Positions 61,025 through 61,295 of a stretch of 64,000 nucleotides of DNA are shown here, in pieces. Source of the stretch: a virus; IMG/VR virus record IMGVR_UViG_3300042348_000780. One strand, written 5' to 3'. A program made the position numbers and the translations under genes. The notes under the pieces were generated by a model that saw only the letters and a list, made by a program, of their open reading frames with translations, ran no database searches and was not told the DNA's origin. Positions within the stretch are counted from its first letter, which is position 1, and each line of letters begins with the position of its first letter.

Positions 61025-61295
61025 AGAAACAGATATCACCGCTGTTTCTTGACCAGTTGCAACAAGTCAAGTCATACGGTGAATCTGCGCCTCCAATCCA
61101 TGAGCGTATTATTTATTACAATGATCTGTAGATTGGATCATATAACAGATCAAGGCCAATAGTAAAAGGTGATATCATTCCTTTTATTTTACGATACTAT
61201 GGGGAAGCAAACCACCATAGTAAAGCCATTGGGGAATGGGAGGATTACCCTCCCCGCACTAGACCTAATCCCATTTGTTACTCGTCTAGTCGAGA
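61025..61295 (-). ncRNA. Candidate structured (multi-pseudoknot) non-coding RNA A
   Basis: At least 9 complementary 6-8-bp segment pairs, several interleaved; no convincing ORF. Confidence 0.5.

Follow-up and report, generated by a model that had tools for sequence, protein, structure and literature searches.

The window analysed here is the whole 64,000-nt stretch of DNA of the viral record IMGVR_UViG_3300042348_000780. Its segment 61025-61295, hereafter RNA A, lies within a 300-nt gap and is flanked by two genes carried on the minus strand (61552-61301 and 61000-60863). On this strand, the order is an 83-codon gene, a predicted pistol ribozyme that starts 5 nt past the stop codon of this gene, a 212-nt fold, a 45-codon gene and a terminator:

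61553-61581, minus strand: sigma-70-type early promoter-like site (TTGACA-17-TAAAAT, 11 of 12 matches)
61301-61552, minus strand: small early gene, 83 codons long (81 when counted from its second ATG), with its stop codon TGA at 61303-61301
61232-61295, minus strand: predicted pistol self-cleaving ribozyme, the first 64 nt of RNA A
61020-61231, minus strand: predicted 212-nt fold
61009-61014, minus strand: Shine-Dalgarno sequence AAGGAG, 8 nt ahead of the ATG of the 45-codon gene
60863-61000, minus strand: 45-codon gene for a very basic peptide (starting MARN.RKGKGAGP), which belongs to a small conserved family
60832-60861, both strands: bidirectional intrinsic terminator that closes the minus-strand unit and the convergent plus-strand gene 60435-60833

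Both flanking genes are real, since the changes that separate them from the related metagenome contig L008 fall preferentially at third codon positions (5/4/15 differences by codon position for the 83-codon gene, 1/0/7 for the 45-codon gene) and the smaller ORF has homologues with about 70% identity (P0007-P0010). The 83-codon gene has five homologues with 73-93% identity, and its homologues P0004 and P0005 begin at its second ATG. This second ATG (61546) is only 7 nt past the -10 box of the promoter-like site, which fits a leaderless mRNA. Counting against the promoter call, 61553-61581 overlaps a possible Shine-Dalgarno sequence, GGAG, of the first ATG. Neither the 83-residue nor the 45-residue protein has a match in the ESM Atlas, Pfam, PHROGs or NCBIfam. 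No promoter or terminator came up between the pistol and the 45-codon gene in our scan for such sites, and this gene lacks a promoter of its own.

The initial annotation had described RNA A as an early phage RNA of the minus strand, densely structured and starting right after the stop codon of the upstream ORF. This description holds. The segment lies in an early-type transcription unit, all the complementary pairs that were listed are present, and the pairing density is above that of shuffled sequences. Indeed, 61300-61001 contains 14 helices of at least 7 bp (with at most one G-U pair and a span of up to 120 nt), compared with 4.7 ± 2.1 in 500 dinucleotide shuffles, none of which reached 14. 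For the 301-nt stretch, MFE z-scores of -4.38 (minus strand) and -3.74 (plus strand) were obtained, and every module folds better on the minus than on the plus strand. An RNA made from the plus strand was rejected, as the pistol matches on the minus strand only, the modules fold less well on the plus strand and plus-strand transcription stops at a strong terminator, at about 60870. Likewise, no tRNA or tmRNA was found in the region with ARAGORN, and a coding sequence inside RNA A was discarded because its invariance extends to all positions, which is not a coding pattern.

The first 64 nt of RNA A on the minus strand (61295-61232) match the pistol ribozyme family RF02679 over the full length of the model (1-68). 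This ribozyme class reportedly goes back to Weinberg et al. in 2015. When 801 nt were compared with Rfam under lax filters, the pistol was the only meaningful match and scored 34.3 bits for a gathering score of 34.5, thus 0.2 bits short of the threshold, with an E-value of 1.9e-4; the E-value was 0.015 when the whole 64-kb window was searched against all 4227 families. The Rfam gathering threshold is a curation line and not a structural feature, and the covariance model gives no credit to the pseudoknot. The predicted elements are the following:

61294-61291 with 61284-61281, minus strand: P1, CUCG/CGAG, standard pairs
61290-61285 with 61263-61258, minus strand: 6-bp pseudoknot, every base of the loop ACUAGA being paired with UCUAGU from the junction of P2 and P3
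61279-61273, minus strand: A-rich 7-nt linker AACAAAU, as long as the consensus AUAAAUA and likewise containing AAA
61272-61269 with 61235-61232, minus strand: P2, GGGA/UCCC, standard pairs
61269-61264 and 61257-61255, minus strand: core, AUUAGG (UUAGG at 61268-61264) and GCG, carrying the UUA-purine-G and GCG motifs
61254-61248 with 61244-61238, minus strand: P3, GGGGAGG(G)/(U)CCUCCC, 6-7 bp, standard pairs
61236-61237, minus strand: predicted scissile bond A61237/U61236 in the 2-nt A-U junction between P3 and P2, placed by alignment to the family model

All 22 pairs of this fold are standard, whereas shifting the partners by 1-3 columns leaves 42-50% standard pairs; these 22 pairs comprise P1, the pseudoknot, P2, P3 and the G-C pair beside the pseudoknot (G33-C41 in the structure papers). 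Moreover, three of the pseudoknot pairs differ from the consensus on both sides and are still complementary (U-A to A-U, g-c to A-U and G-C to A-U). The covariance model penalises four loop positions that depart from the consensus, the pseudoknot itself being unscored, and the aligner's posterior probability is lower at the linker. The RF02679 match recurs in relatives, both the nearest IMG/VR record and metagenome contigs. Among these, the pistol varies in contig L007 only (27.3 bits), in the P3 loop, with a closing pair that changes from G-U to G-C.

The single departure from the consensus core is an A instead of a G on the 5' side of the scissile bond, the U(+1) being kept. [quoted passage not shown] The roles of the core residues have been described, including that of the guanine of G-C-G that acts as general base (PMC6154101, PMC6795133). 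The G on the 5' side of the cut normally contacts G42 (PMC6795133); with an A at this position the contact is lost, so cleavage could be slow.

Compared with known pistols (Harris et al. 2015, PMC4604425; structures 5K7C and 5KTJ, described in PMC6154101), that of RNA A has P1, the 6-bp pseudoknot, the 7-nt linker, P2, P3, the core and the 2-nt junction, and is likewise phage-associated and intergenic. It differs from them by the A at the cut site, by the sequence of its linker and by a score just under the threshold. It also belongs to an uncultured phage, and not to a Firmicute or its phage, and is fused to a 212-nt invariant fold. Altogether, the sequence and its predicted pairing make it very probable that 61295-61232 is a genuine pistol ribozyme, for which self-cleavage is predicted. 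The initial annotation had missed it; one of its three pseudoknots is already explained, since the first 64 nt correspond to a known ribozyme. The pairing of AATGGGA with TCCCATT proposed there does exist as a complementarity, but it represents an alternative register, since in the pistol fold GGGA at 61272-61269 pairs with UCCC at 61235-61232 and CCUCCC is engaged in P3.

Downstream of the pistol, the 212 nt at 61231-61020 are predicted to form a three-way junction, an H-type pseudoknot (PK2) and then a pseudoknot or a bulged hairpin (PK3):

61156-61232, minus strand: predicted three-way junction with the closing stem CCAAUGG/CUAUUGG (7 bp), MFE -22 kcal/mol, z -3.0
within 61156-61232, minus strand: predicted hairpin 1 of the junction, UACUAUGG/CCAUAGUA, with a 12-nt loop
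within 61156-61232, minus strand: predicted hairpin 2 of the junction, UAAAAGG/CCUUUUA, with a 10-nt loop that carries the palindrome UGAUAUCA
61092-61152, minus strand: PK2, candidate H-type pseudoknot with helices of 8 bp and 9 bp, z -1.75 for its nested part only
61025-61088, minus strand: PK3, predicted stem UCACCGU/GCGGUGA enclosing the hairpin CUUGACU/GGUCAAG, MFE -26.4 kcal/mol, z -5.0

The hairpin of PK2 (61152-61122) is predicted to form between UGAUCUGU and ACAGAUCA, and its loop UCCAAUCUA would pair with UGGAUUGGA (61100-61092), with a duplex energy of -10.2 kcal/mol for this second helix; a 21-nt A/U-rich loop lies between the hairpin and the downstream strand. Two conformations can be drawn for PK3. 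As a pseudoknot, the strand AGAAACAG would pair with the downstream CUGUUUCU. The alternative is a fully nested 13-bp bulged stem (GCAGAU+UCACCGU / GCGGUGA+U+AUCUGU) that excludes the AGAAACAG/CUGUUUCU helix. The complementarity on which the initial annotation based its pseudoknot in PK3 is real, but the nested stem is an alternative to it.

No Rfam match better than an E-value of about 1 was obtained for 61231-61020, whether it was searched alone in 236 nt or within the 801 nt with lax filters. Riboswitch, hatchet, twister and tRNA-like families gave no covariance-model match to this segment. On inspection by eye, the three-way junction does not contain the hammerhead core and the order of helices in PK3 differs from that of HDV-like ribozymes; neither family has an Rfam match here.

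Two further observations were made within the fold. A perfect 9-bp long-range complement is present between 61176-61168, in the loop of hairpin 2, and 61040-61032, in PK3, around the palindrome GAUAUC. By itself it is within chance (about 0.17 expected), and it could be a tertiary contact, a dimerisation site or a chance occurrence. In the long loop of PK2, the minus-strand sequence AATAAATA at 61110-61117 agrees with the T4-type late promoter box TATAAATA at seven of eight positions. Late transcription starting from here, if real, would give an RNA made of PK3 and the 45-codon gene only.

The relatives with which RNA A was compared are close ones, namely the record IMGVR_UViG_3300042465_004268 (L010 and others) and four JGI metagenome contigs (L006-L009). 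Searches for homologues in the phages collection (blastn and tblastn) and in viral, metagenome and genome contigs returned near-identical copies or nothing, and two leads, L015 and L016, proved to be false. The informative comparison is that of the window with L008 and L009, over 1.6 kb, the 83-residue protein being 89% identical. In this comparison, the 276-nt block 61295-61020 has one difference, compared with 9.1% outside the block (binomial P 1.1e-10), and the two longest identical runs, of 176 and 99 nt, are both inside it. The block starts at the first base of the ribozyme, with an indel one base upstream, and ends at 61020, 5 nt after the last helix and about 20 nt ahead of the 45-codon gene. 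PK2 and PK3 are identical in all the close relatives compared, and the three-way junction has one difference from L008, at 61196. The adjoining stretch 61019-61001, which carries the Shine-Dalgarno sequence, has 5 differences in 19 nt. As this stretch varies and lies outside the conserved block, the fold is not expected to hide the ribosome-binding site, and a riboswitch acting in this way was rejected on the same grounds.

In the same genomes, other structured elements have changed. The terminator at 60832-60861 differs from its counterpart in L008 (~3190-3225) at 5 positions, by matched pairs that keep the stem, and the hairpins of a second structured RNA of the window, RNA B (62398-62176), also show compensatory changes. 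Elements that are maintained for their structure only thus drift at this evolutionary distance, whereas RNA A does not.

We propose, with a probability of about 0.6, that the locus is a composite element in which an early transcript is cut by the pistol and an invariant, functional fold then leads the 45-codon gene. The early transcript very likely covers the 83-codon gene; its probable origin is the promoter-like site at 61581-61553, translation then starting leaderless at 61546. It reaches the pistol (61295-61232) 5 nt past the stop codon and would, by analogy with the family, be cut between A61237 and U61236. Pistols cleave themselves at a specific site and depend on Mg2+. Their cleavage leaves a 2',3'-cyclic phosphate and a 5'-OH (PMC4604425). 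The upstream mRNA would hence be expected to end in the folded body of the ribozyme with a 2',3'-cyclic phosphate, and a second RNA would be freed with a 5'-OH at U61236, 4 nt ahead of the closing stem of the three-way junction. The 212-nt fold would then physically be the 5' leader of the 45-codon gene, in a unit that ends at the terminator 60832-60861. Such an invariant fold may be a functional RNA domain that needs an exact 5' end, and it would most probably protect and mark the downstream RNA and bind a protein or another factor. This reading makes a testable prediction, a cut at 61237/61236 that produces an RNA with a 5'-OH.

It is also conceivable, though we hold this more tentatively, that the 212-nt fold works on its own rather than as a leader, released as a non-coding RNA of about 215 nt with a trans-acting role such as that of a decoy for, or partner of, a host or phage factor. 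The pistol would make its 5' end, and a host nuclease would cut the A/U-rich strand that follows PK3 (~61024-61010) to make its 3' end. Consistent with such an RNA, the invariant block stops about 20 nt short of the start codon and the ribosome-binding stretch varies, and RNA B, which sits between two promoters, has the module order of RNA A and the same zero-length junction in its last module; however, the interval from the block to the 45-codon gene contains neither a terminator nor a known processing signal, and this gene has no promoter of its own. A stand-alone RNA would belong with RNA B, whose 5' end would come from a promoter, and this possibility is compatible with the composite element proposed above.

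The initial annotation had placed RNA A and RNA B in one structural class. Like RNA A, RNA B is on the minus strand in the early region and has a similar length. The order of modules is the same in both, with two hairpins, a hairpin whose loop pairs downstream, and a stem that encloses a hairpin and a strand pairing downstream. In the last module of both RNAs, no nucleotide separates the downstream-pairing strand from the 3' strand of the stem (zero-length junction). By contrast, their sequences are unrelated and their loop lengths differ. RNA B has its own promoter and sits between two promoters, whereas RNA A is headed by a ribozyme, and no pistol match was found in RNA B in the Rfam search. 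The same two genomes share 82% identity over RNA B, where compensatory changes occur, but 99.6% over RNA A. A covariance model built on PK2 and PK3 (R1) recovered only itself in the window at E ≤ 10 and nothing in RNA B, a search of low power because the model holds effectively one sequence; this counts against a stand-alone RNA related to RNA B. The common layout thus stands and the covariance model provides no cross-match, so that the single class proposed for RNA A and RNA B is a resemblance in layout and not an established relationship.

As a side observation, the compensatory changes of RNA B from the window to L008 are located in two minus-strand hairpins, 62356-62371 and 62270-62296 (CCUCC/GGAGG to CCUUC/GAAGG, and ACAG/CUGU to GUAG/CUAC), and hardly any change is seen in its last module, 62239-62176.

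A broader reading of the layout, which we consider doubtful, is that the 212-nt fold represents a new class of early functional phage RNA that needs an exactly defined 5' end, made by the pistol in RNA A and by the promoter in RNA B. If true, this would give pistols a concrete job, that of maturing the 5' end of a structured RNA with a regulatory or decoy role, and the 5'-OH end might also be a substrate for phage enzymes of RNA repair or ligation.

The near-total invariance of RNA A exceeds what a structured RNA usually needs, and a recent exchange of the block between lineages could account for it. Pushed to its limit, this would mean that only the pistol is functional and that the identity of the 212 nt marks a recent tract of gene conversion or cassette exchange, the helices having no specific role. 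Invariance does extend to loops and linkers, which are normally free to drift in structured RNAs, and the identical tract reaches 43 nt into the upstream gene. However, the limits of the block match the first base of the ribozyme and the end of the last helix, the helix density and folding energy are far beyond those of shuffled sequences, and the pistol of L007 has changed in its P3 loop only, which points to selection rather than to recent transfer. We regard this explanation as improbable. More generally, the comparison leaves the choice between a constraint on nearly every base of RNA A and a recent exchange of the block, and it favours constraint, as the limits of the block coincide with structural limits and the change in L007 is confined to a loop.

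Finally, it is very improbable that cleavage is regulated, with the downstream fold serving as a sensor or allosteric domain that turns the pistol on or off by way of a ligand, a protein or co-transcriptional competition: the 3' strand of P2 does adjoin the closing stem of the three-way junction and alternative pairings can be drawn (GGGGAGG 61255-61249 with CUUCCCC 61207-61201, and CAUUCC 61238-61233 with GGAAUG 61181-61176), but these 6-7-bp alternatives are individually within chance expectation, pistols cleave at about 10 per minute (PMC4604425) and the leader has no match to a riboswitch family in the Rfam search.

The composite element that we favour can be set beside two known arrangements. 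Phage ribozymes that border genes or lie shortly upstream of start codons offer a precedent (PMC3088659, PMC6765202); among hammerheads, positions beside genes or only a few bases from the start codon are documented (Perreault et al. 2011, PMC3088659). Like these hammerheads, the ribozyme of RNA A is located between two cistrons of one transcript, which implies their processing into separate RNAs. It differs from them by its class, by its occurrence as a single copy and not in series, and by a downstream product that starts with a long invariant structured domain instead of a short leader. The leader of the T4 gene 32 mRNA carries one small autoregulatory pseudoknot at the 5' end of the transcript, with no ribozyme. 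In both this leader and, as predicted, RNA A, a pseudoknot is followed by an A/U-rich single strand that runs to the start codon of a gene for a protein of nucleic-acid-binding type. RNA A differs by its ribozyme and has no sequence similarity to the T4 leader. That the 45-residue peptide binds its own leader is pure conjecture.

The ribozyme itself is a new copy of a known kind, and the 212-nt structured RNA attached to it is uncatalogued in Rfam and remarkably invariant. The biological purpose of such ribozymes, including the natural role of pistols, has been called unknown (PMC6765202). The locus presents a pistol copy in a readable setting, with a putatively leaderless early gene on one side and, on the other, an unusually invariant RNA rich in predicted knots, followed by the conserved gene of a tiny basic peptide.

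Elsewhere in the window, a match to a tRNA model (39.7 bits) is located on the plus strand at 28557-28620, directly after a tRNA-Tyr. Its acceptor, D and T arms are present, its anticodon loop is deleted (7 model positions missing) and it is not called by ARAGORN. On the minus strand, an A/T-rich stretch at 55860-55951 gives a sub-threshold match to the eukaryotic snoRNA family Z103 (34.7 bits for a threshold of 44, E 0.006), which is probably due to chance. Lastly, the third longest identical run of the comparison with L008, of 75 nt, is found at 60338-60414. This run takes in a terminator-like hairpin (60367-60394) together with the first half of promoter 60400-60428, which serves the gene 60435-60833, and constitutes a conserved cassette boundary.
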